A DNA stretch of 12,803 nucleotides, from assembly GCA_964415125.1 (NCBI GenBank), contig CAYQAD010000042.1:1-12803 (forward strand), in the 5' to 3' direction. The position numbers were made by a program, and so were the translations under genes. The notes beneath the pieces are model-generated. The model was not told the origin of the DNA and searched no databases. It was given only the letters and a program-made list of their open reading frames with translations. Source of the DNA: an uncultured Phycisphaeraceae bacterium (GTDB lineage: Bacteria > Planctomycetota > Phycisphaerae > Phycisphaerales > UBA1924). Below are positions 3,277 through 12,803 of this stretch, in pieces (positions within the stretch are counted from its first letter, which is position 1; each line of letters starts with the position of its first letter).

Positions 3277-5231
3277 TGCAGCACCATCTCACGATCGCGA
3301 CCAGCCTTGTTCTCGCGGCCTTCGGCGGCACGGCATCGTCGGCTCTTGCTTCGGACTCGGCCTCGGCGTTGACCACGCCCGAGCCCTCGGCGCGGGCCGC
3401 GCAGACGCCCGGTGCGCTCGTGTCTCCGATCGCCGATGCGCTCGCGTCCGTGCCCGATGACGTTCGCGCCTTTGACATGCACATCTCGACGCTGGCGAAC
3501 CCATTCATGCAGGGCCGAACGCCCGGCACGCCGGGTTCGGAGTTTGCCAAGGCGTACCTCGAGTTTTACTTCCGTGAGGCGGGGCTGGTGAAGCCGTTTG
3601 CGGAGGAGACGTCGAGCGGGCGTGCAGTCGCGGGCGAGATGTCGTACCGGCAGCCCTTCGAGATCTCGGGTCGCGCGGAGGTCGTCGCGCAAGCAATGAC
3701 CGCGTTCGAGGCCGACGGCCAGCGCATCGGCCGGCTGCAGCCCGGCGAGGACTTCAACGCCACCGGCTTGGGGCTCGGCGGTGCGGCGCAGGGCCAGGCC
3801 GTGTTCGTCGGGTACTCCACCGTCAATGGCGAGTACGACGCGTACGCGCCGGCCGAGGACCTCGATCTGACCGGCAAGGTCGCGCTGATGCTCCGATTCG
3901 AGCCCATGAACGACCAGGGCATGAGCCGATTCACGGGCGGGCAGTGGTCGGCGGCGGCGGGCTTTAATGGCAAGCTCCGCGCGGTCGCCGAGCGCAATCC
4001 CGCAGCGGTGGTCATCATCAACCCGCCGAACACGGCCGACCCGCGCGCCACGCGCCTGATGCCGAGCGGCGGCGGGGGTCGGCCGATCCTCGACGTGCCC
4101 GTCCTGCACATGTCCGCCGCGGCCGGGCAGCGGCTGATCGCGGGTCTCGATGCGCAGGGACGATCGCTGGCGACCTTCCAGCAACTCGCCGACACGCAGC
4201 CGACGATCGTGGAACTCGACGGCACCGTGCAGCTCTACGCCGACATCGAGCGCACATCGCTCAAGCCGGAGAACGTCGCGGGGCTCCTGCCCGGCAAGGG
4301 TGACCTCGCCGACGAGTACGTCGTGATCGGCGGCCACTTCGATCACACGGGCAACGGCGGCTTCGGCGCGCCCACGTCGATCTCGCAGGTGCACGAGGGC
4401 GCCGACGACAACGCGTCGGGCACCGCGGGCGTCCTAATCCTGGCCGACCGTCTCGCCCGGACCTACGCGGAGCTCCCCGAGGGCGCGAGCGCCCGATCGA
4501 TTCTGTTCATCGGTTTCGATGCGGAGGAGTCCGGGTTGAACGGCGCGTACCACTACGTCGCCAACCCGGTCGCGCCGATCGAGGACCATGTGCTCATGCT
4601 GAACCTCGACATGATCGGCCGCGTCGTCAATGGCGGGCTCTCGCTGCAGGGCGCGACGTCCGCCGTCGGCTTTGAGGATTGGCTGCAGCCGTACATGGAC
4701 GCTTCGCCGCTGAACTTTGCCGTGTCGCAGACCGTCGGCCGCCGGTCCGACCACGCGCCGTTCTACTTCGAGGGCAACGTGCCCGTGCTCTTCGGGATCA
4801 TAAACCCGCTGCACAACGACTACCACACCGACCGCGACGAGGCATGGAAGATCAACCGCGTCGGCAGCGTGCAGGTCATCGACTTCTTCGAGAACATCGC
4901 CACGGCGATCGCGCTCCAGCCTGAGCGGCTGCAGTACGCGGCACCCACCGCGCAGACCGCCGCCCCGCGCACACGCGTGGTCGTCGGCGTCCAGCCGCGC
5001 GACGTCCCGGAGGGCGGCGTGCTGCTCGCGAACGTCTCACCGAACACCTCGGCGTCCGCCGGCGGGCTCGTCGACGGAGACCGGATCATCGAGTGGGGCG
5101 GCAAGGAGGTCACCAACGTGACGGCGTGGGTCCAGATGCTCGCCCAGCACGAGCCCGACGACCTGGTCGACGTCGCGGTGATGCGCGACGGCAACCGCTT
5201 CGAGACAACGCTCACGCTCCGGCCGCGATAA
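3277..5231 (+). CDS. Secreted M28-family Zn aminopeptidase with PA (protease-associated) domain and C-terminal PDZ domain
   Basis: AGGAG lies 9 nt upstream of ATG 3277. The N-terminal signal peptide is MQHHLTIATSLVLAAFGGTASSALA. M28 metal-ligand motifs are present: GGHFDH, GADDNASG, GFDAEESGLNGAYHY, NLDMIG, DYHTDRDE. The C-terminus is PDZ-like (GVLLANVSP...GDRIIEWGG...). The track ORF (2652..) is an upstream frame extension without a start signal. Confidence 0.85.
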
Positions 5232-5282: not shown

Positions 5283-6302
5283 CTAGGTTCGCACGGAGAC
5301 GGTCACCCGCCGACGCTCATCCTCCTCGCGATGGAGCTTGACGGGCAGGAACGTCTCGATGACCGCGGCATTGGTCACCGAATGGCCCGTGAGGCTCCCC
5401 GTGCGGTAGGCCCCGCCCCCCGCGATCGCGAGGGGCAGCATGAGCTGGTCGGCCAGGTGCTTCCACACGGGCACGTCGGCGCTCAGGTACCGCCGAACGC
5501 TCGACGCGGCCCCGCGGGCGACCTTCTCGGCGGACACGCCGCGCTCGCCGAAGCCCGTGAACACCTCCGTGATGTCCTCGCGCGCAACCTCAATGCTGAC
5601 GATATTCCCCGGGCCGACGCCGTCGTCGAGTTGCTCGAGCGCAACCTCTTCCTCGGCCCAGCCGAGCTTCTCGCGCAGCACGTGCGCCTCGCGCTTCGCG
5701 ATCGAGCCTGGCAGGCCGGCGACCGTTGCGATCGCGCGTCTCCTCGTCACGGGCGTCGTATCAATGAGTTCCAGCGGGCGCAGTCGTGGCACCGGGGTAA
5801 TATCCACACGGATCCTGCCGCCGCCCGCCGGATAAAAACCGTGTCGCTCGAGCTGCAAGTCGACGGCGGGGCCCATCCGGTTGATGAGCGGCAGGAATGC
5901 GCTCTTAAGGAAGTGCACGCTCGGCGCATGCATGTTGTGCGTGCCGCCGGACAGCGTGATGGTGGAGGGCTCGCTCGCGGTGAGCAGCGCGGGCAGGACG
6001 GTCTGCAGCACCAGCGTGGTGCTCCCCGCCGTGCCGATCGAGAAGTCGTACGAGCCGCCCTTGATATCGCCGGGCGTGAACTCGATCGCTGTCGAGCCGA
6101 GCTCGGCGCCCGCGACCTCTCCACCGCACGCTGCGCGTGCCGCTTCGACCGAGGTGAGGTGCTGCCGCATGAGCCCGGGCTTGGCCCGGCCTGCCCGGAT
6201 GTTCTCGATCCGGAAGGGCTGGCCCGTGACCATGGAGAGCGCGAGCGACGTGCGCAGCACCTGCCCGCCGCCCTCGCCCTGTGCGCCATCGACACGGATC
6301 AT
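5283..6302 (-). CDS. rtcA: RNA 3'-terminal phosphate cyclase RtcA
   Basis: The translation aligns along its length with E. coli RtcA (DGAQGEGGGQ(V/I)LR...IRAGRAKPGL(M/L)RQHLT...LVLQTVLPAL...HGFYPAGGG...YLADQL(M/V)LP(L/M)A(I/L)AG). ATG 6302 overlaps the upstream gene's TGA (ATGA). An alternative GTG start lies at 6308. Confidence 0.9.
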   Translation of the reverse strand: MIRVDGAQGEGGGQVLRTSLALSMVTGQPFRIENIRAGRAKPGLMRQHLTSVEAARAACGGEVAGAELGSTAIEFTPGDIKGGSYDFSIGTAGSTTLVLQTVLPALLTASEPSTITLSGGTHNMHAPSVHFLKSAFLPLINRMGPAVDLQLERHGFYPAGGGRIRVDITPVPRLRPLELIDTTPVTRRRAIATVAGLPGSIAKREAHVLREKLGWAEEEVALEQLDDGVGPGNIVSIEVAREDITEVFTGFGERGVSAEKVARGAASSVRRYLSADVPVWKHLADQLMLPLAIAGGGAYRTGSLTGHSVTNAAVIETFLPVKLHREEDERRRVTVSVRT

Positions 6303-7561
6303 CGCCACACTCCTGCCCGTCGCCGGCGCTTTGGTGCGCGCGGCGCCGCCTCACTCGCAGCGCCACCGCTCGCAGCGGGGCGGCGCCAGTCCTCGCGCAT
6401 GATCCTGTTGATGAGCACGGCGGATGTGGCGTGCTCTCCCGCCATTACCTCGCGCACGATCTCGTGGCGGCTGCGCACGTGGGGGAACAGGCGATCGACG
6501 TAGTCCATCGCCACGTCCGACTGCAGCAACGGCACCTCGATCTTGATGTCGGCTCGGCCCGGCCGGATCAGCGCCGGGTCGAGGCGTTCGATGTGGTTGG
6601 TAGACATGATCAGGATCCGCCCGTTCTGCGGCGCGATGACACCGTCGATGCAGTTTAAGAAGCCGGAGAACGTGATGCCGTCGGCGTCCTCGCTCGAACG
6701 TTGGTGGAAGGCGCAGTCAACATCTTCGATGAGCACGATCGAGCCCTCACGCACACCCTCGAACGCGGTGAAGAGGTCCTCGTCCGATCGCATGTCCGCC
6801 AGCGGGATCACCGCGAGGCGGCGCTTGAGCTCGGAGGCGAGCGCGTGCGAGATGGAAGTCTTGCCCGTGCCGGGGTTGCCGTGCAGCAGAATGCCGAGGC
6901 GCCAGGGGATGCCCAGCCGCTCGTAGTCGTCGCGGCTCTCGGTGAACTCCCGCACGCGTGCTGCGAAGTCCTCGAAGAAGCGTGGCGGCAAACACAGCGT
7001 TCGCGGCTCGCGCAGCGGCAGCGTGATCGTGGAGCTTGCGCCGTACTTGCCGCACAGGTCGACCCGCTGGCGGTCTTCCATGACGTTCGCCCGCTGCTTG
7101 GTTGCGCTGAGCATGCGCGCAAGATCCGCCGGCGTGGCGAAGAGCACCTCCACGCGGATGATGAACCGGCGGACGAGATCCGCGCTTCCGCCCCCGGCCG
7201 CCTCCTCGCGGCGGATCGACACGCGGCACCATTTGCCGTGGACGCGTGCCCAGAAGCTGTCCGAACCGGCGGCGAAGGCCGACGCGGCAGCGCGTTCCTC
7301 GTAGTCGTCGGTCGTGCTGCGCACCTCGAGCGTTCGCGGGCCTCCGGGTCGGCGCGCGTGCTCGGTCAGCAGGCCGAGCCACGCGTCGTAGAGCGGGTGC
7401 TTCTCCCGGATCTCGATGACGCGCGTGAAGATGCCCCGCGCCAAGGAGAAGACGCGGTCGGGCAGCGCGCGGAGCTGATAGCCGATCCAGCCGGCGATCA
7501 TGAGCGTGAGTCCGCCTTGCACGACGGGCGATTCTTTGATGATGTTCTGTATCCAGTCCAT
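6299..7561 (-). CDS. BCS1-like AAA+ ATPase (BCS1_N-like N-terminal region with a hydrophobic segment, plus AAA domain)
   Basis: Walker A GILLHGNPGTGKTS, Walker B IVLIEDVDCAF, the BCS1-typical ITFSGFLNCIDGV, and sensor/Arg-finger RILIMSTNHIERLDPALIRPGRAD are present. The N-terminus MDWIQNII...GGLTLMIAGWIGY and the ...HGKWCRVSIRREE segment resemble the Bcs1 N-domain. Its stop overlaps the rtcA start. Confidence 0.85.
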   Translation of the reverse strand: MDWIQNIIKESPVVQGGLTLMIAGWIGYQLRALPDRVFSLARGIFTRVIEIREKHPLYDAWLGLLTEHARRPGGPRTLEVRSTTDDYEERAAASAFAAGSDSFWARVHGKWCRVSIRREEAAGGGSADLVRRFIIRVEVLFATPADLARMLSATKQRANVMEDRQRVDLCGKYGASSTITLPLREPRTLCLPPRFFEDFAARVREFTESRDDYERLGIPWRLGILLHGNPGTGKTSISHALASELKRRLAVIPLADMRSDEDLFTAFEGVREGSIVLIEDVDCAFHQRSSEDADGITFSGFLNCIDGVIAPQNGRILIMSTNHIERLDPALIRPGRADIKIEVPLLQSDVAMDYVDRLFPHVRSRHEIVREVMAGEHATSAVLINRIMREDWRRPAASGGAASEAAPRAPKRRRRAGVWR

Positions 7562-7623
7562 GATGCTTCAAGGTCAGTGCGCGCAGCGACAGCGCCGCCG
7601 CGAGGTCGTCAGCATGATGCCGC

Positions 7624-7643
7624 GTTCCGCAAATGGGCGGAAC
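7624..7643. other. Inverted repeat gttccgc-aaatgg-gcggaac (7-bp stem) in the rtcB-AAA intergenic gap
   Basis: A perfect 7-bp stem with a 6-nt loop lies 63 nt upstream of the AAA start codon. It could be an RNA hairpin in the inter-cistronic transcript or a protein-binding site. Confidence 0.25.
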
Positions 7644-7791
7644 CGGACGAACGGCGCACCATCTCGACGATGGCGGCCTCACGAGGTTGTCATGTGGGGG
7701 GTGGCCCCACCGGCGTCGCCGGCGGAGCGGCGACAGGTTACGTTGAAGCTTGGTTTCCGTGCAGCAATGGGCACCTCCTGTCGGGGACGCA

Positions 7792-7819
7792 AGTATCGGC
7801 GCCTCCGATTCCATGTCAA
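7792..7819 (-). promoter_or_regulatory. Candidate sigma70-like promoter (minus strand: TTGACA, 16-17 nt spacer, GATACT) in the rtcB-AAA gap
   Basis: It sits in a locally AT-rich patch just downstream of the rtcB stop and would read toward the AAA-rtcA genes. This is sequence similarity only, and the promoter rules of this lineage are unknown. Confidence 0.2.
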
Positions 7820-7866
7820 GCGCAATTCAGAAAGTCATAGAAACTCTTCGCGCGGCGTGTGCATGC

Positions 7867-9363
7867 CTAGTCGTCGGGCTTGTCGCCGTCCTTGATGACA
7901 AACGTCGCCTGGAGCCGTGCGACTTCGCTCGCGAGCCCGGCGGCCTTCACGGATCTGAGTACCTCGTCGAAGTCCTTGTACGCAGCGGGCGCCTCGTCGA
8001 TGGGGTAGTTGCGGCAGTTCGTCAGGATGTCGCGCTCGGAGAACGACGCGTTGATCGCCGCCTGGTCGAGCGTGCGAGTCGCGGCCTTGCGGCCCATGAC
8101 TCGGCCGGCGCCGTGGTTCACGCTGAAGCACGAGAGCTCGGCGCCCGGATCGGCAACCATGACCGCCGAGCCCGCCTGTGGGTTGCCCGGGAGCAGGATG
8201 GGATGGCCGGTTGCTTCGAAGGGCGTGCCCTTGAGCGCGTGATGGCCGGCGGGGAAAGCGCGCGTGGCACCCTTGCGGTGCACCCAGTGCGGCTTGCCGT
8301 CGATGATCTCCTTGCGCGCAACGTTGTGGCTGATGAAGTACACGAGCTTGCCGTTGATGCCCGGGAAGACCTCCTGGAACGCTTCGAGAATCAGCGCGTT
8401 GATGAGCAGGTGGTTGAGCGTTGCGAAGTTCGCGCCGATCGCCATGTCGTCGAGGTACTTGCATGCCTCCTCGGTGCCGAGTGGGGCGTGGACGAGTTGG
8501 CGGTCGCCGCCGGGCAGCGGGATCCCCCAGGTCTTGAAGTGCTGCTCGAGCGCCTTGAACTGCCCCGCGGCCATGTCGTGCCCCAGGCCTCGCGAGCCGC
8601 AGTGGGAGAGGAACGCAACGCCGCCGTCGCGCAGGCCGAACACTTCGGCCGCCTCGCGGGCGCGCTCGCCCTCGCTGACTCGAACGATCTCGCACTCGCC
8701 GAAGTGGTTCCCTCCGCCGTAGGACCCGAGCTGGCGGATCTTCTTGGGAAATCTCTCATAGAACCGGGCGTCGCCCTTGTGGAGCTCGAGGCGGGCGCGC
8801 AGCGCGTCGGCCGAGCCGTCGTGCCCGGTATGGATGCTGTCCTCGCACCGATCGGCCCACTCGGGCGGAATGCCGAGCACGCGGCAGACCTCGTCGGTCG
8901 CACCCTCGGTGACGACGCGCGTGCCGACCTCGTGCGAGACCTCGCGTGACTTCGGCGCGTGCCGCTGCCCGCGCCCCGCGCCGGTCGGCGTGCGCTCACA
9001 GATCGCGTCGATGATCGCGCGCCGCGTGCGAGCGTCGCGCACGGCCTCCTCGTCGAGATCGAGCGCGAGAAGGCTCATGGAGCACTTGATGTCAACGCCG
9101 ACGGGCCCGGGGTAGATGTGCGAAGGGCTCGCCATCACGCACCCGACCGGCGTGCCGTAGCCGACGTGGGCGTCGGGGTTCAGGACAAGGTGCGACACGC
9201 CGGGCGCCATAGCCGAGTTGACGGTCTGGCGCAGGCAGCCCGCGTCAAAGGTCTCGCGGATCGCCGGCGTCCCGATGACGGTGACGGGCTTGCGGTCGTC
9301 CGGCAAGGGAAGGATGCCGGTTGCCTCGCCGGTCTCGATGATCGTGGTTGTGTCGCTTGCCAT
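7867..9363 (-). CDS. rtcB: RNA-splicing ligase RtcB (3'-phosphate/5'-OH RNA ligase)
   Basis: RtcB signature blocks are present: NPDAH, GVDIKCSM (active-site Cys), GGNHFGE, SHCGSRGLGH, SHNVA, HRKGATRAF, NHGAGRVMGRK. AGGAG lies 6 nt upstream of ATG 9363. Confidence 0.9.
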   Translation of the reverse strand: MASDTTTIIETGEATGILPLPDDRKPVTVIGTPAIRETFDAGCLRQTVNSAMAPGVSHLVLNPDAHVGYGTPVGCVMASPSHIYPGPVGVDIKCSMSLLALDLDEEAVRDARTRRAIIDAICERTPTGAGRGQRHAPKSREVSHEVGTRVVTEGATDEVCRVLGIPPEWADRCEDSIHTGHDGSADALRARLELHKGDARFYERFPKKIRQLGSYGGGNHFGECEIVRVSEGERAREAAEVFGLRDGGVAFLSHCGSRGLGHDMAAGQFKALEQHFKTWGIPLPGGDRQLVHAPLGTEEACKYLDDMAIGANFATLNHLLINALILEAFQEVFPGINGKLVYFISHNVARKEIIDGKPHWVHRKGATRAFPAGHHALKGTPFEATGHPILLPGNPQAGSAVMVADPGAELSCFSVNHGAGRVMGRKAATRTLDQAAINASFSERDILTNCRNYPIDEAPAAYKDFDEVLRSVKAAGLASEVARLQATFVIKDGDKPDD

Positions 9364-9542
9364 GTCGATCTCCTGGGTTGGAAAGATACTGCGAGCAACC
9401 CCGGCGGTTTCTGAATCCGCGGCTTGCCCTCTGGATAGGTCGCTCTGCGGCCGAGGCGTCGAGCGTTGCGTGCGTCCCCGCGCGTCTCACGCTGGGCGTT
9501 GGTGTGCAAAGCGCTGCGCCCGCGTTGGCGAACGCGAGCGCG

Positions 9543-10670
9543 TTAGTGGGCGGCCTGGCCCTTGCGGATCAGCGAGCCGACCTGGTCGGCGAGGTCGCCC
9601 GAGCCGAGCACGAACGTCGCGTCGGTGCCCTTGAGGATCTCCTGCAGGGTTTCCAGCTCCTTCATTCGCGCGAGCACCGGGTTGTCCGCGAGGAGCTTCG
9701 CGGTGTTTGCCTGGCTGCGCGATGCCGCGGTCTCCTCGCGACGGCGAATGAGGTTGGCCTCGGCCTGCTTCTCCGCGACGATGACCTCGTTGAGGATCAC
9801 CTTCATGTCCCCGGGGAGGATGATGTCTCGCAGGCCGACGCCCGCGACCGCCACGCCGAAGGCGGCCGCTCGCGTCGCCAATCGGCTGCGGATCTCGTTG
9901 CCCACGTCGTCCTTGTCGCTGAGCAGCTTCTCGAGGCTTCGCCCGCCGACGGCGGCGCGGAGCTGGAGTTGCGCCTCGCGATAGAGCGACTGGGTCCAGT
10001 CGGCGACTTCCGTGACCGCCTTGACCGGGTCGGTGACGCGGTGCGTCGCGACGAGGTTGACCCGCAGCGTGACCTTGTCGGCCGTCATGATCTCCTGCCC
10101 CTGGATGTCGGCAACGTGCTCTCGCAGATCGACGGGCTTCCAGGTGACGGCCGGCCCGCCTCGCCAGTACACAAAGTGTCCCGGTCCGAGCTGGTCGACG
10201 AGCTTGCCCTCGCGGAAGAGCATGACGCGTTCGTGGGCCTCCACGCGGACGCCGTTGAAATACTTCGCGCCCGCGGGGAAGTTGAGGATGGACTCGAGCC
10301 GGGGGTGCTCGAAGCGGGGCTCGTTCACGTTGTGCCGCTCGACCTCGACCGCTGCCGGCCCGCTCCAGTACGCGTGGAGGCCGGGGCCGAGCACGGCTTC
10401 GAGCCGACCGTTGACCCAGGCGAGGGCGCGCTCGTCGTCCTTCAGGTCGACGATCGTGAGGCGGGATGCCAGCTGCGGCTCACGCGTGAGGGCTTCGAGC
10501 CGATCGTGCGTGAAGCGGGGCGTCAGCGTGTCCACAACCTCGAAGGTGTCGTGCCGACGGAGGGGCCAAGTTGCAACGCGGTGTGCACCGGGGTCGAGCA
10601 CCGCCCGGAGGTCGCCGTGGCGGAACCACAGGCCGAGTTCGTGCTTGCGGATTCGGAGTGTCTTCATCAT
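9543..10670 (-). CDS. SPFH/band-7 (stomatin/slipin-like) domain protein with no N-terminal transmembrane helix and three tandem N-terminal repeats
   Basis: The C-terminal ~200 aa is a classical SPFH domain (QEIMTADKVTLRVN...LRDIILPGDMKVILNEVIVAEKQAEANLIRRREETAAS...). AAAGGAG lies 8 nt upstream of ATGATG at 10670. The track ORF extends upstream to 11081 through low-complexity sequence with no start signal. Confidence 0.8.
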   Translation of the reverse strand: MMKTLRIRKHELGLWFRHGDLRAVLDPGAHRVATWPLRRHDTFEVVDTLTPRFTHDRLEALTREPQLASRLTIVDLKDDERALAWVNGRLEAVLGPGLHAYWSGPAAVEVERHNVNEPRFEHPRLESILNFPAGAKYFNGVRVEAHERVMLFREGKLVDQLGPGHFVYWRGGPAVTWKPVDLREHVADIQGQEIMTADKVTLRVNLVATHRVTDPVKAVTEVADWTQSLYREAQLQLRAAVGGRSLEKLLSDKDDVGNEIRSRLATRAAAFGVAVAGVGLRDIILPGDMKVILNEVIVAEKQAEANLIRRREETAASRSQANTAKLLADNPVLARMKELETLQEILKGTDATFVLGSGDLADQVGSLIRKGQAAH

Positions 10671-11028
10671 CACGTGGGCTCCTTTCGTTGGGCTCGTGAT
10701 GCGTGCGAGTGGGGGAGTTGCTTCGAATGCGAGCCAAGGGGTTCCTTGCGCTGCCCGCCCGTTTCTGCGGCGGGGTCCGGGTTGAGGCCCGACGCACGCC
10801 GCTCGTGCGCTCGCGGCGTGTCGCCCCATCGGCTCGCCGGTGGCGGGCGTCTTGGGGGAGGTGCCGCGAGCGTGTCGCGTCGATTGCCGGGCCGGTATCC
10901 GCCGGACCACGGGCCGCGTCGCCGGTGCTTCCCTCCGCCGGAGCGCCGCGGGGCGGCGTGCCGACAGCCGGGTCGCGGCGGGCATGCGGTTCGGTGGGCC
11001 CTTGGCCCACGGTGTGCTTTGGCCAGTC

Positions 11029-11097
11029 TGCTCTGGGCGGGATTCGAACCCGCAGGTCTTGCGACCCTGACCGTCCGTCATCTGGTTCAGAGATGCG
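11029..11097 (-). ncRNA. tRNA-like element B: T-arm plus acceptor 3' strand fragment with an upstream GNRA hairpin, directly abutting element A
   Basis: The minus strand reads ...CATCT-CTGAACC-AGATG...CAGGGTC-GCAA-GACCTG-GCGGG-TTCGAAT-CCCGC-CCAGAGC-A. It has a perfect T-arm and acceptor 3' half. No matching acceptor 5' strand or D-arm is present, so it is not a complete tRNA. Confidence 0.35.
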
Positions 11098-11169
11098 GGT
11101 TGCGTGCCGGACTCGAACCGGCAACAGCCGAGGGGTAACTCGGTGCTCTACCAATTGAGCAAACGCTTC
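11098..11169 (-). ncRNA. tRNA-like element A: near-complete cloverleaf with non-canonical features (candidate Y-RNA-like tRNA mimic or tRNA pseudogene)
   Basis: The minus strand reads GAAGCGT-TT-GCTC-AATTGGTA-GAGC-A-CCGAG-TTACCC-CTCGG-CTGTT-GCCGG-TTCGAGT-CCGGC-ACGCAAC-C. It has canonical D-arm and T-arm (TTCGA loop). The anticodon loop is only 6 nt, and the acceptor stem has two A-A mismatches with no encoded CCA. Confidence 0.5.
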
Positions 11170-11376
11170 ATGTCCGCCGGCAGAACCCGTGTTCGCGAAA
11201 CGCGGGACGCCGAGAGGCGCCGCGTCGCCGGACGGCGGGGCATGACAAAGGGGTGGGTGATGTTGAACTCGCCGCAGCACGGGCCCTGGTCGAATCGCGA
11301 GGCGGCCCGCAGTGCGTGGACCTCGCTGGGGCGGAGGCGGCGGCGTGTGTTGTGGATCGATCGGGCTTCCATGGTC

Positions 11377-11404
11377 GGCCTCCTGTCGTGAATGACGGGA
11401 GGCC
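11377..11404. other. Stable hairpin ggcctcctg-tcgtgaatga-cgggaggcc (9-bp stem including one G-U)
   Basis: Seen directly in the rtcR-operon intergenic region. No U-tract follows on either strand. Confidence 0.3.
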
Positions 11405-11520
11405 CTTATGCACGACGCGTGCCAGCCTCGTCGGCCGGAGACGCCAGAACAAAAAACACCGTTTGGAGGCTGTGAACGCGGATGGCGATCGTTGCAGGTG
11501 CAGCGTCGCGTTTGGAATGT

Positions 11521-11536
11521 CGATACAATTGTATCG
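11521..11536. promoter_or_regulatory. Perfect 16-bp palindrome CGATACAATTGTATCG in an AT-rich patch 30 bp upstream of rtcR; candidate operator / divergent -10 elements
   Basis: Each half contains TACAAT (near TATAAT). It is unusually AT-rich for this ~70% GC locus and lies between rtcR and the divergent tRNA-like/SPFH-rtcB-AAA-rtcA string. Confidence 0.35.
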
Positions 11537-11565
11537 TATCTGATCTCGATTGATCGTGAGGTACC

Positions 11566-12803
11566 TTGGCAGCTCGCAAGTCCATCCCGCGTCCGACGGT
11601 GGTGCTCGGCATCCTCGGGACCACGCTCGACACCGGGAAGGGCCCCAAGCGGTGGGAGCGCTGGCGGCCGACCGTGTCGCTCTGCCAGCACGAAGATCTC
11701 CTTGTCGATCGCCTCGAGCTGTTGCACGATCAGCGGGCGTCGCGCCTCGCGGAGACGATCATCGCGGACATCGCGTCGGTCTCGCCCGAGACGCGGGTCG
11801 TCCAGCACCTCGTGGACATCACCGACCCGTGGGACTTCGAGGAGGTCTACGGCTCGCTGCACGAGTTCGCGGCGGGTTACGACTTCGACACCGAGCGCGA
11901 GGACTACCTCGTCCACATCACCACGGGCACGCACGTCGCGCAGATCTGCAACTTCCTCCTCACCGAGGCCCGCTACTTCCCCGCGCGGCTGATCCAGACC
12001 AGCCCGCCCCGCGGCAACAAGGGGCGAAGCACCGACAGCCCCGGGCTGTTCAGCATCATCGACCTCGACCTTTCGCGGTACGACCGCCTCGCGGCACGAT
12101 TCGAGCGCGAGCACACCGACGCGATCGCCTCGCTCAAGGGGGGCATCGAGACGAGAAACCCGTCGTTCAACCGGCTCATCGAACGCATCGAGCACGTCGC
12201 GGCACGGACGACCGATCCGATCCTGATCACGGGGCCCACGGGTGCCGGCAAGTCACGCCTGGCGGGGCGGATCTTCGAGCTCCGCAAGCATCGCCGGCTG
12301 GTGCGGGGCGAGCTCGTCGAGGTGAACTGCGCGACCCTTCGCGGCGATGGCGCGATGTCGGCGCTCTTCGGGCACAAGAAGGGCGCGTTCACCGGCGCGG
12401 CCTCCGACCGCGCGGGACTGTTGCGGTCCGCCGATGGCGGCACGCTGTTCCTCGATGAGATCGGCGAGCTCGGGCTCGACGAGCAGGCAATGCTGCTCCG
12501 GGCGATCGAGGAGAAACGGTTCCTCTCGCTCGGTGCCGACACGGAGACATCGAGCGATTTCCAGCTCATCGCGGGGACCAACCGCGATCTTGCGGAGCGC
12601 GTACGCAGCGGCGAGTTCCGGGAGGACCTGCTCGCGCGGATCAACCTTTGGACCTTCGAGATGCCCGCGCTGCGTGATCGCCCGGAAGACATCGAGCCGA
12701 ACCTTGACTACGAGCTGGAGCGATACGCGCGGGACCGCGGGCAGTTCGTGCGGTTCAGCGCCGAGGCGAGGTCGGCGTTTCTGGCGTTCGCGACCGGGCC
12801 CGA
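11566..12803 (+). CDS. rtcR: Sigma54-dependent transcriptional regulator RtcR (N-terminal CARF-type sensor domain plus AAA+ sigma54-activation domain); 3' end beyond the window
   Basis: The translation aligns along its length with E. coli RtcR: ...WERWRPTVSLCQHEDLLVDRLELLHD...SPET...DPWDFEEVYG...YLVHITTGTHVAQIC...ARLIQTSPP...IDLDLSRY..., then Walker A ITGPTGAGKS, GAFTGA, LFLDEIGEL, and the ESR-like GEFREDLLARINLW. The start is inferred at TTG 11566, with a possible GTG at 11599. The frame is open to the window end, so it is absent from the ORF track. Confidence 0.85.
   Translation, partial: MAARKSIPRPTVVLGILGTTLDTGKGPKRWERWRPTVSLCQHEDLLVDRLELLHDQRASRLAETIIADIASVSPETRVVQHLVDITDPWDFEEVYGSLHEFAAGYDFDTEREDYLVHITTGTHVAQICNFLLTEARYFPARLIQTSPPRGNKGRSTDSPGLFSIIDLDLSRYDRLAARFEREHTDAIASLKGGIETRNPSFNRLIERIEHVAARTTDPILITGPTGAGKSRLAGRIFELRKHRRLVRGELVEVNCATLRGDGAMSALFGHKKGAFTGAASDRAGLLRSADGGTLFLDEIGELGLDEQAMLLRAIEEKRFLSLGADTETSSDFQLIAGTNRDLAERVRSGEFREDLLARINLWTFEMPALRDRPEDIEPNLDYELERYARDRGQFVRFSAEARSAFLAFATGP

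Follow-up and report, generated by a model that had tools for sequence, protein, structure and literature searches.

A predicted RtcR/sigma-54-controlled RNA-repair operon with an SPFH protein, a tRNA-like RNA and a lineage-specific BCS1-family AAA+ cassette in an uncultured planctomycete

The role of bacterial RtcB/RtcA operons and of their accessory cargo, such as Ro60 with Y RNA or an SPFH protein with a tRNA-like RNA, is still largely unexplained. We questioned what kind of RNA-repair locus is encoded on contig CAYQAD010000042.1 of an uncultured Phycisphaeraceae bacterium, where an SPFH gene precedes rtcB and a gene for a BCS1-like AAA+ ATPase lies between rtcB and rtcA. The stretch analysed, hereafter the window, is the entire 12,803-bp contig of a metagenome-assembled genome (MAG); its G+C content is 68%, and its closest relatives are Phycisphaerales/Planctomycetota MAGs. 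A first-pass annotation had described the gene string as a non-canonical Rtc locus in which SPFH and BCS1-like AAA+ genes form an apparently new pairing, possibly within a single RtcR-controlled transcript. The reading that we favour, with somewhat better than even confidence, is that the locus is an RtcR/sigma-54-controlled RNA-repair operon of the predicted "Band-7/SPFH + b7a tRNA-like RNA + RtcB" type, with a lineage-specific, self-regulated AAA+ cassette inserted between rtcB and rtcA. The cassette is taken to comprise a sigma-70 promoter, a 9-codon leader open reading frame (ORF), three overlapping helices, and the BCS1-family AAA+ gene. The features of the locus are as follows (SD, Shine-Dalgarno sequence).

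11566..12803, + strand: 5' part of rtcR, 412 codons with a TTG start assumed; the contig end removes the C-terminal helix-turn-helix
11409..11424, - strand: predicted sigma-54 (-24/-12) promoter TGGCACGCGTCGTGCA at the head of the gene string
10671..11400, - strand: long, conserved 5' leader RNA of the SPFH gene, which holds both tRNA-like modules and has the SD GAAAGGAG just before the start codon
11098..11169, - strand: tRNA-like RNA (the "b7a-tRNA"), from Rfam and ARAGORN
11037..11069, - strand: second, partial tRNA-like module, a GCAA-loop hairpin plus the T-arm GCGGGTTCGAATCCCGC
9543..10670, - strand: SPFH/stomatin-like ("slipin") protein, 375 amino acids (Pfam Band_7, 3e-31)
7867..9363, - strand: rtcB RNA ligase, 498 amino acids (Pfam RtcB, 5.6e-102)
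7792..7819, - strand: predicted sigma-70-type promoter TTGACA-N16-GATACT in the rtcB-AAA spacer
7738..7782, - strand: AAA leader, with the SD GACAGGAGG and a 9-codon mini-ORF (7767-7738)
7705..7737, - strand: three overlapping helices, P0/P1/P2, directly 3' of the mini-ORF stop codon
6299..7561, - strand: BCS1-family AAA+ ATPase, 420 amino acids (Pfam AAA, 3e-22)
5283..6302 (ORF to 6308), - strand: rtcA RNA 3'-phosphate cyclase (Pfam RTC, 7e-81, plus RTC_insert; NCBIfam equivalog, 1e-132)

Pfam, Rfam and ARAGORN searches confirmed all of the parts that the first-pass annotation had named (rtcR with a CARF domain, tRNA-like RNA, SPFH, rtcB, BCS1-like AAA+, and rtcA), and its description of a non-canonical Rtc locus headed by RtcR and sigma-54 was supported. 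The rtcR product matched Pfam RtcR/CARF (9.5e-84) and Sigma54_activat (1.6e-48), NCBIfam RNA_repair_RtcR (2e-194), and the PADLOC RtcR model (2e-201). The window thus carries the traits of an Rtc system, namely a divergent RtcR with CARF and sigma-54 activator domains, a sigma-54 promoter, and co-directional rtcB and rtcA, between which lies the AAA+ gene. The promoter element TGGCACGCGTCGTGCA is a predicted RtcR/sigma-54-type site with one mismatch to TGGCAC-N5-TTGCW, and the same motif was present in 10 of 11 rtcR-divergent intergenic regions of relatives. The SPFH gene, 179 nt upstream of rtcB, starts at ATG 10670, and its 375-residue product is identical to database protein P0121; a 512-residue ORF considered for this gene was rejected as an over-call. 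At the other end of the string, the most likely predicted start of rtcA is ATG 6302, which forms a 4-nt ATGA overlap with the AAA stop codon and has an AGGAG SD 9 nt upstream. This junction, which is also found as a 4-nt overlap in the related loci L001 and L008, bears out the translational coupling of AAA and rtcA that had been claimed, and because of the overlap, rtcA translation would depend on that of AAA.

With which genes does the AAA+ gene keep company? Fourteen contexts of the tight AAA+ clade, including the window, were counted, alongside a survey of 80 SPFH loci (related loci are cited by their L numbers). The order rtcB-AAA-rtcA occurred in 9 of the 14 contexts, the window among them.

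SPFH-rtcB-AAA-rtcA: the window, L008, and a 9.9-kb ENA contig
Ro60-(YrlA)-rtcB-AAA-rtcA: L005, L092
rtcB-x-AAA-(x)-rtcA, with no cofactor gene: L001, L006
rtcB-AAA-rtcA on short contigs: L089, L091
Decayed operon, with an intact AAA downstream of SPFH and rtcB remnants: L170
AAA stand-alone: L003, L169, L171, and the JGI contig of P0047

Across the rtcB-AAA-rtcA loci, the identities of AAA, RtcB and RtcA to the window proteins fall together. The extra genes are not random insertions, in that SPFH, tRNA-like RNA and rtcB (with or without rtcA) recur in L008, L010, L011 and L071 and the order rtcB-AAA-rtcA recurs in 8 further contexts. The proposed pairing of SPFH with the BCS1-like AAA+, in contrast, was not borne out: 79 of the 80 SPFH loci lack the AAA+ gene, with L008 as the one exception, and the AAA+ gene also occurs with Ro60/YrlA, with no cofactor gene, or alone. 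In L170, what is left of the SPFH C-terminus (E 2e-5) and of the RtcB C-terminus (E 1e-7) is found at 3777-4114, just upstream of an intact leader and AAA gene, and judged by these remnants L170 is a decayed SPFH-rtcB-AAA operon in which AAA is the sole survivor. No Rtc neighbours were found for distant BCS1-like proteins (≤36% identity). Because of this neighbourhood distribution, the AAA+ gene is a lineage-specific, facultative companion of rtcB and rtcA and not a partner of SPFH. By the same comparison of gene orders, the cofactor slot is interchangeable among loci, being filled by SPFH with b7a RNA or by Ro60 with YrlA (the YrlA match in L005 scored 66.6 bits), or left empty; no match to a Ro60 homologue was obtained in the window.

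Several of these contexts carry further genes. L006 has two more inserts (6962-7522 and 9428-9970): rtcB is followed by the gene for a DUF6714 protein, and AAA and rtcA are separated by that for a PF10237 "N6-adenine methyltransferase". In L003 (6205-10773; also L004), the stand-alone AAA and its leader follow three small genes and precede a gene for a 474-residue HEAT-like protein. Among the three small genes is one for a bacterial eRF1-like protein (baeRF_family12 / Host_attach, 1.7e-10), which in this one genome may be another tie to translation rescue. Ankyrin-repeat proteins are encoded beside rtcR or near the stand-alone AAA in several Phycisphaerae loci, namely L001 (2138-3871), L002 (83-1816), L008 (1-1956) and L003 (4792-5781).

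The AAA+ protein itself is a true member of the BCS1 family, with a BCS1-type N-domain and one AAA domain. Its subfamily profile matched full-length mitochondrial BCS1 in the PDB over residues 11-386 (E 1.5e-49), and Foldseek searches with its AlphaFold2 model (predicted local distance difference test score, pLDDT, 79) returned Bcs1 as the top 17 hits, aligned over 406 columns at E 4e-28, followed by B. subtilis YjoB. The first-pass annotation had called the two accessory proteins SPFH/band-7 and BCS1-like AAA+; the Band_7 (3e-31) and AAA (3e-22) matches held, while BCS1_N reached 2e-4, below its cut-off. In the subfamily alignment, the Walker A and B, sensor and arginine-finger motifs are intact and the C-terminal tail is basic. 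The N-terminal segment SPxVQGGLxLMxAGWLGYQL is conserved and aligns with the BCS1 transmembrane (TM) region, with a Kyte-Doolittle 19-residue mean of 1.0-1.4 that is below the usual TM level. Homologues at 52-97% identity group as a tight clade drawn entirely from Phycisphaerae-type MAGs, after which identity drops to ~35% for generic bacterial BCS1-like proteins. Members of the clade were not found on plasmids.

The nearest outgroup, at 44% identity, is encoded without the leader in L007 (the same locus as L174), on a 107-kb IMG/VR contig predicted to be viral. At 4200-14200 it is flanked by an SMC_N-like ATPase on one side and by HerA_C-like, DUF5131 and UvrD-helicase genes on the other, with phage tail genes upstream, and the region looks like a possible defence or anti-defence island.

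The spacer between rtcB and the AAA gene bears on how the AAA+ gene is expressed. The element TTGACA-N16-GATACT is the sole such site in 6.6 kb, where 0.3 were expected, and a -35 TTGAC with a -10 element bearing A2/T6 recurs at 10 of 11 AAA loci, some of them outside Rtc operons. It is followed in order by the SD GACAGGAGG, the mini-ORF, and then CCUGUCGCCGCUCCGCCGGCGACGCCGGUGGGG at 0-3 nt from the stop codon, an arrangement common to every clade member, inside and outside Rtc operons. Among 173 loci, the leader motif occurred solely upstream of AAA genes, and it was not found in viral contigs. Its positions in other loci are given below.

L001: 7764-7819
L003: 7725-7779
L008: 7799-7854
L092: 6782-6836
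L170: 4259-4314
L171: 5304-5370

The mini-ORF of the window reads TTG CTG CAC GGA AAC CAA GCT TCA ACG TAA (MLHGNQAST). A predicted mini-ORF with a GGAGG site and a start codon was present in 12 of 12 AAA loci examined; in 10 of these it is 9 codons long, and the remaining two have mini-ORFs of 10 and 13 codons. Length, frame and SD are conserved, and the peptide sequence is not. Its G+C content at third codon positions is 0.53, compared to 0.86 in the AAA genes (p = 6e-15), so the mini-ORF is rich in rare codons. Folding predicted three mutually overlapping helices: P0, which pairs GACAGG in the SD region (GACAGGAGG providing the 5' arm) with CCUGUC; P1, which pairs GUCGCCG with CGGCGAC; and P2, which pairs CUCCGCCGGC with GCCGGUGGGG. 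They were paired at 98%, 94% and 76%, respectively. This leader looks like a ribosome-sensing attenuator, and the AAA gene together with the coupled rtcA has a predicted promoter of its own. Since AAA and the coupled rtcA carry that promoter, the single RtcR-controlled transcript considered in the first-pass annotation is doubtful, and with a conserved sigma-70-type promoter and leader predicted in the rtcB-AAA spacer, an RtcR-only transcript probably does not cover the whole string.

The SPFH protein and its RNA occupy the promoter-proximal part of the operon. The SPFH profile matched stomatin in the PDB at 1e-30 over residues 143-355, and the AlphaFold2 model (pLDDT 83) consists of three N-terminal beta units, the SPFH domain, and a long C-terminal helix (helices at 286-348). 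The best Foldseek E-values were to stomatin and HflK/C cages, and the longest alignments were to the major vault protein. Hydropathy revealed no membrane anchor, either hairpin or TM, N-terminal to the SPFH domain, where the first 140 residues form beta units; the maximum of 1.59 is located within the SPFH domain itself. The lack of any hydrophobic segment of TM strength agrees with the earlier suggestion that the protein is cytosolic. The family, which NCBI lists as "slipin family protein", is large and well conserved: it gave >4,800 matches, and species-representative genomes contain at least 581 of its loci. Burkholderia, Citrobacter and E. coli have relatives with 35-38% identity.

The RNA at 11098-11169 scored 39.1 bits against the Rfam tRNA model, and ARAGORN reported it as "tRNA-???"; its anticodon loop has 6 nt, and the acceptor stem is frayed by two mismatches at its end. 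It lacks the 7-nt loop, the paired 7-bp acceptor stem and the stable anticodon identity of a canonical tRNA, and the anticodon of the proximal tRNA-like RNA is erratic even in close relatives (CAU, GAU, CCA, CAC). A co-directional tRNA or tRNA-like gene lies upstream of SPFH in 65 of 81 loci, and a T-arm motif was found ≤750 nt upstream of SPFH in 70 of 74 loci. When 11 sequences were folded jointly with RNAalifold, 9 of 22 consensus pairs showed compensatory changes, all 5 anticodon-stem pairs among them. The first of the tandem tRNA-like elements that had been annotated here is thus upheld, while the second does not stand as a whole tRNA and consists of the GCAA hairpin and T-arm at 11037-11069. 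Loci of the Phycisphaerae group conserve this second module 42-70 nt past the first T-arm, and its hairpin shows compensatory changes; the module gave a weak, partial match to the tRNA-like part of Deinococcus Y RNA (16.5 bits against a threshold of 80). When 17 SPFH upstream regions were aligned, conserved blocks extended well beyond the tRNA-like modules on both sides, which suggests that positions ~10671-11400 of the - strand encode a structured RNA or 5' untranslated region of roughly 600 nt.

In that alignment, the blocks 5' of the b7a-tRNA are CGTCCGGCGRCGC and GYGTTTCGCG..CGGGTTCTG, and those 3' of it are GATACCG / CTCAA / CCCCGCCG..CGGGCG, reaching the SD GAAAGGAG. In the loci sampled, SPFH and its RNA form a largely autonomous unit, with rtcB ≤9 kb from SPFH in only ~10 of the 80 SPFH loci. 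Canonical-looking tRNA genes, in arrays of 3-10, lie on the same strand ≤1.5 kb from SPFH in L014-L017, L025, L038, L051-L054, L058, L066, L079 and L081 (for example, Lys-Lys-Thr-Arg-Asn-Trp and Trp-Thr-Arg-Arg-Arg-Cys), and within the RtcR-headed operon of L008, Leu-CAG, Pro-TGG, Asp-GTC and His-GTG tRNA genes lie between SPFH and rtcB (5801-6160). By analogy, such arrays may supply spare tRNAs made on demand, an echo of the trn operon of Anabaena. In Planctomycetaceae/Pirellulaceae, Ro60 homologues adjoin SPFH and tRNA-like units (L074, 6512-8140; L062, 3037-3600), in agreement with the reported occasional mixing of the Ro60 and SPFH cofactor systems. In enterobacteria, slipin and a nucleotidyltransferase gene, perhaps RlaP-like, are divergent from rtcR in Citrobacter freundii NZ_CP151862.1 (L173, 4966-8919), without rtcB or rtcA, and slipin with a nucleotidyltransferase gene occurs without rtcR, rtcB or rtcA in E. 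coli STEC639 (L172, 7004-8928); the 450-nt leader of these loci shows only a T-arm-like hairpin, UGGGUUCGAUUCCCA.

How much of this locus is new? A Band-7 protein and a "b7a-tRNA" next to RtcB were predicted by Burroughs & Aravind 2016, according to the preprint that cites them (bioRxiv 10.1101/312249); the b7a RNA is strongly tRNA-like but only predicted. As the module is defined through that preprint, it consists of an SPFH gene beside RtcB and an adjoining tRNA-like non-coding RNA, and both were found in the window. A 2026 paper further places the P. aeruginosa SPFH gene PaFlo8 within an rtc locus (PMC13086221). Thus the claim that the cargo is undescribed does not extend to the SPFH protein and tRNA-like RNA beside RtcB, since the b7a-tRNA/Band-7/RtcB prediction and PaFlo8 precede it. 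It may stand for the AAA+ ATPase, in that full-text literature searches returned no paper linking BCS1 or AAA+ to Rtc operons, with the 2016 study represented by the citing preprint. The window resembles both of these systems in having SPFH and a tRNA-like RNA by RtcB/RtcA under a divergent RtcR. It differs from the Band-7/b7a system in that its RNA is embedded in a conserved leader of greater length, where a half-tRNA forms a second module, in that the sampled SPFH and RNA units are mostly away from RtcB, and in the added BCS1-like AAA+. Most of the locus is therefore already known as a predicted system; what appears new is the AAA+ cassette of the BCS1 family, leader included, which is confined to one clade of uncultured Planctomycetes.

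Other known systems match parts of the locus. Like rsr-yrlBA-rtcBA of Salmonella, the window has a cofactor protein and a tRNA-like non-coding RNA between an RtcR-dependent sigma-54 promoter and rtcB, with SPFH and b7a RNA in place of Ro60 and YrlA; L005 and L092 have exactly the Salmonella arrangement. Mitochondrial BCS1, the AAA heptamer that translocates the folded Rieske protein, and B. subtilis YjoB share with the window AAA+ protein the full-length sequence and fold, the N-terminal helix, the BCS1-specific domain, and the single AAA domain. The window protein, in contrast, is bacterial, has 26% identity, and lies in an RNA-repair operon with no Rieske or bc1 context; its N-terminal helix is weakly hydrophobic and its C-terminal tail basic. 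To our knowledge, BCS1-type ATPases are a family without a known role in bacteria. The SPFH model resembles the major vault protein, which associates with vault RNA, in its beta-repeat units, SPFH "shoulder" and long helix, its solubility, and its association with a small non-coding RNA, whereas it has three short N-terminal units, its sequence similarity is confined to the SPFH part, and its cage is a matter of model prediction. The vault protein TEP1 carries a TROVE domain.

Taken together, these comparisons suggest how the operon may work. According to the published Salmonella and E. coli work, RtcR is activated by damaged tRNA via its CARF domain, and RtcA and RtcB heal and seal 2',3'-cyclic-phosphate breaks. 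By analogy, the CARF domain of RtcR in the window would sense damaged RNA and RtcR would fire the sigma-54 promoter. The first transcript would then begin with the long structured leader, containing a non-decoding tRNA mimic and a half-tRNA, and continue into SPFH and RtcB. The SPFH protein, anchor-free and vault-like in layout, is probably a soluble ring or cage that may scaffold RtcB with the tRNA-like RNA, the role that Ro60 and YrlA would have in the sister operons. If so, a vault-like SPFH protein with a dedicated tRNA mimic would offer a compact system for how RNA-protein cages assist RNA repair. From its own promoter, the cassette could also produce AAA+ and the translationally coupled RtcA.

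Short leader peptides control genes by attenuation in the trp operon, the 9-codon cat/cmlA leaders, erm and tnaC. The AAA leader shares with these a short ORF with a strong SD, a ribosome whose position would choose between overlapping helices 1:2, 2:3 and 3:4, a richness in rare codons, and conservation of length but not of sequence. It differs from them in having no U-tract terminator and in that the AAA start codon is 156-315 nt away, with no predicted change in its accessibility; Rho, a roadblock or RNA stability would be candidate outputs. Its geometry would be of the trp type, with P0 as 1:2, P1 as 2:3 and P2 as 3:4 and the stop codon 0-3 nt before region 2. A ribosome running through the rare-codon mini-ORF would favour P2, while one stalled within it, for example when tRNAs or ribosomes are damaged, would favour P1 and read-through. 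The AAA+ protein would in that case be a stress-induced remodeller in a translation-damage response.

A more far-reaching version of this scheme, which we put forward tentatively and think unlikely as it stands, is that a BCS1-family AAA+ has been recruited to RNA repair as a second, RtcR-independent arm. Its ~9-codon, rare-codon leader ORF would read ribosome and tRNA health and switch on AAA+ with RtcA when translation falters. The ATPase would then remodel or extract damaged ribonucleoprotein, such as stalled ribosomes or nicked tRNA held by protein, or feed folded clients to the SPFH/Ro60 scaffold, giving RtcA and RtcB access to broken ends. An independent experimental hint for the favoured reading comes from Anabaena, where components like those of the window and its sister loci are co-induced in the TrcR translational-stress regulon (PMC10272220), among them rtcB, a 26-tRNA array, an ATPase of the AAA family and a protein of the slipin family; there, in contrast, the genes are dispersed and under a repressor, with neither RtcR nor sigma-54. 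What makes the window worth attention is a BCS1-type ATPase kept beside repair enzymes in one lineage, with an apparent ribosome-speed sensor. If the leader does sense translation damage, it would provide a second, testable input to RNA repair and a handle on bacterial BCS1-like ATPases, and the second-arm proposal, joined with the Anabaena regulon, would suggest that RtcB, slipin, AAA+, and spare or mimic tRNAs make up a widespread "translation-damage toolkit".

Several observations weigh against a repair-linked, attenuator-controlled cassette. Compensatory change was seen at 3 helix pairs only (in 1 and 2 pairs) among 10 sequences, and shuffle controls were not exceeded, so that the signal is not significant. 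There is no U-tract after P2, and a terminator scan was empty; P2 is therefore not a canonical terminator. The C>G bias expected for Rho loading after the helices was inconsistent beyond the first 45 nt. A mechanism in which the mini-ORF unmasks the SD of the AAA gene was rejected, as forcing the mini-ORF region single-stranded in 11 loci did not consistently open the AAA start. The likeness of the slipin and AAA proteins of Anabaena to those of the window is one of family description, and Burroughs & Aravind 2016, known here via the citing preprint, could list an AAA+ neighbour. Finally, AAA stands alone in 4 contexts (L003, L169, L171 and the P0047 JGI contig) and is absent from the closely related SPFH-Rtc operons L071, L010 and L011, so the link between AAA and Rtc is facultative. 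These last two observations also fit a doubtful but serious alternative, in which the AAA+ cassette is an autonomous stress gene that landed once between rtcB and rtcA in an ancestor of these Phycisphaerae and has been inherited without any role in RNA repair. A conserved promoter and leader of its own in every AAA context, its outliving of rtcB and SPFH decay in L170, and the location of its nearest outgroup on an IMG/VR viral contig are what such a history would leave. Against a passive passenger, the position between rtcB and rtcA has been kept even though RtcB has diverged to ~70% identity and the upstream cofactor varies (SPFH, Ro60 or none), the ATGA overlap ties rtcA translation to AAA (also in L001 and L008), and a leader that apparently monitors translation fits the theme of the operon.

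A different possibility is that the locus serves defence or abortive infection, with RtcR sensing phage-induced RNA damage and a membrane-anchored BCS1-like ATPase acting as the effector or as the exporter of a folded effector. In its favour, the hydrophobic N-terminal helix of AAA aligns with the BCS1 TM segment, solved BCS1 structures are named as translocases that move folded proteins, PADLOC includes an RtcR-CARF model, AAA weakly resembles IetA, and the prophage-like contig of the outgroup L007 has SMC-like, HerA-like and UvrD genes around it. We consider this explanation improbable: PADLOC had no defence-system model above noise for SPFH, RtcB, RtcA or AAA, the hydropathy of the AAA N-terminus (1.0-1.4) is under the usual TM level, no conserved candidate for an exported effector adjoins AAA, the AAA gene was not found on plasmids nor its leader on viral contigs, and the genes flanking the loci are mostly housekeeping. 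Assignments of AAA to IetA or TRIP13 by PADLOC were set aside as generic AAA similarity. That SPFH and AAA+ form an obligate machine, a cage and its ATPase fixed as a pair like HflK/C with FtsH, would be suggested by the solved SPFH cages around an AAA protease, by FtsH-HflKC entries among the fold matches of the SPFH model, and by the presence of both genes in the window, L008 and the 9.9-kb ENA contig. The co-occurrence counts largely refute it and leave it very improbable, given that AAA is missing from nearly all SPFH loci (79 of 80), including the SPFH-Rtc operons of the close relatives L010, L011 and L071, and also occurs with Ro60/YrlA or without a cofactor gene.

On the low-coordinate side of the window, two ORFs lie beside the operon (27-644 and 735-2615, both + strand), for which neither Pfam nor PHROGs returned a family match. 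The 626-residue product of the pair is rich in Gly and Val and repetitive, with a PEP-CTERM-like tail, VPTPGVVTLIGVAGLIGTRRRR. Between these and the operon, the gene at 3306-5231 (+ strand) is convergent with rtcA and encodes a secreted M28 peptidase that has PA and PDZ domains.

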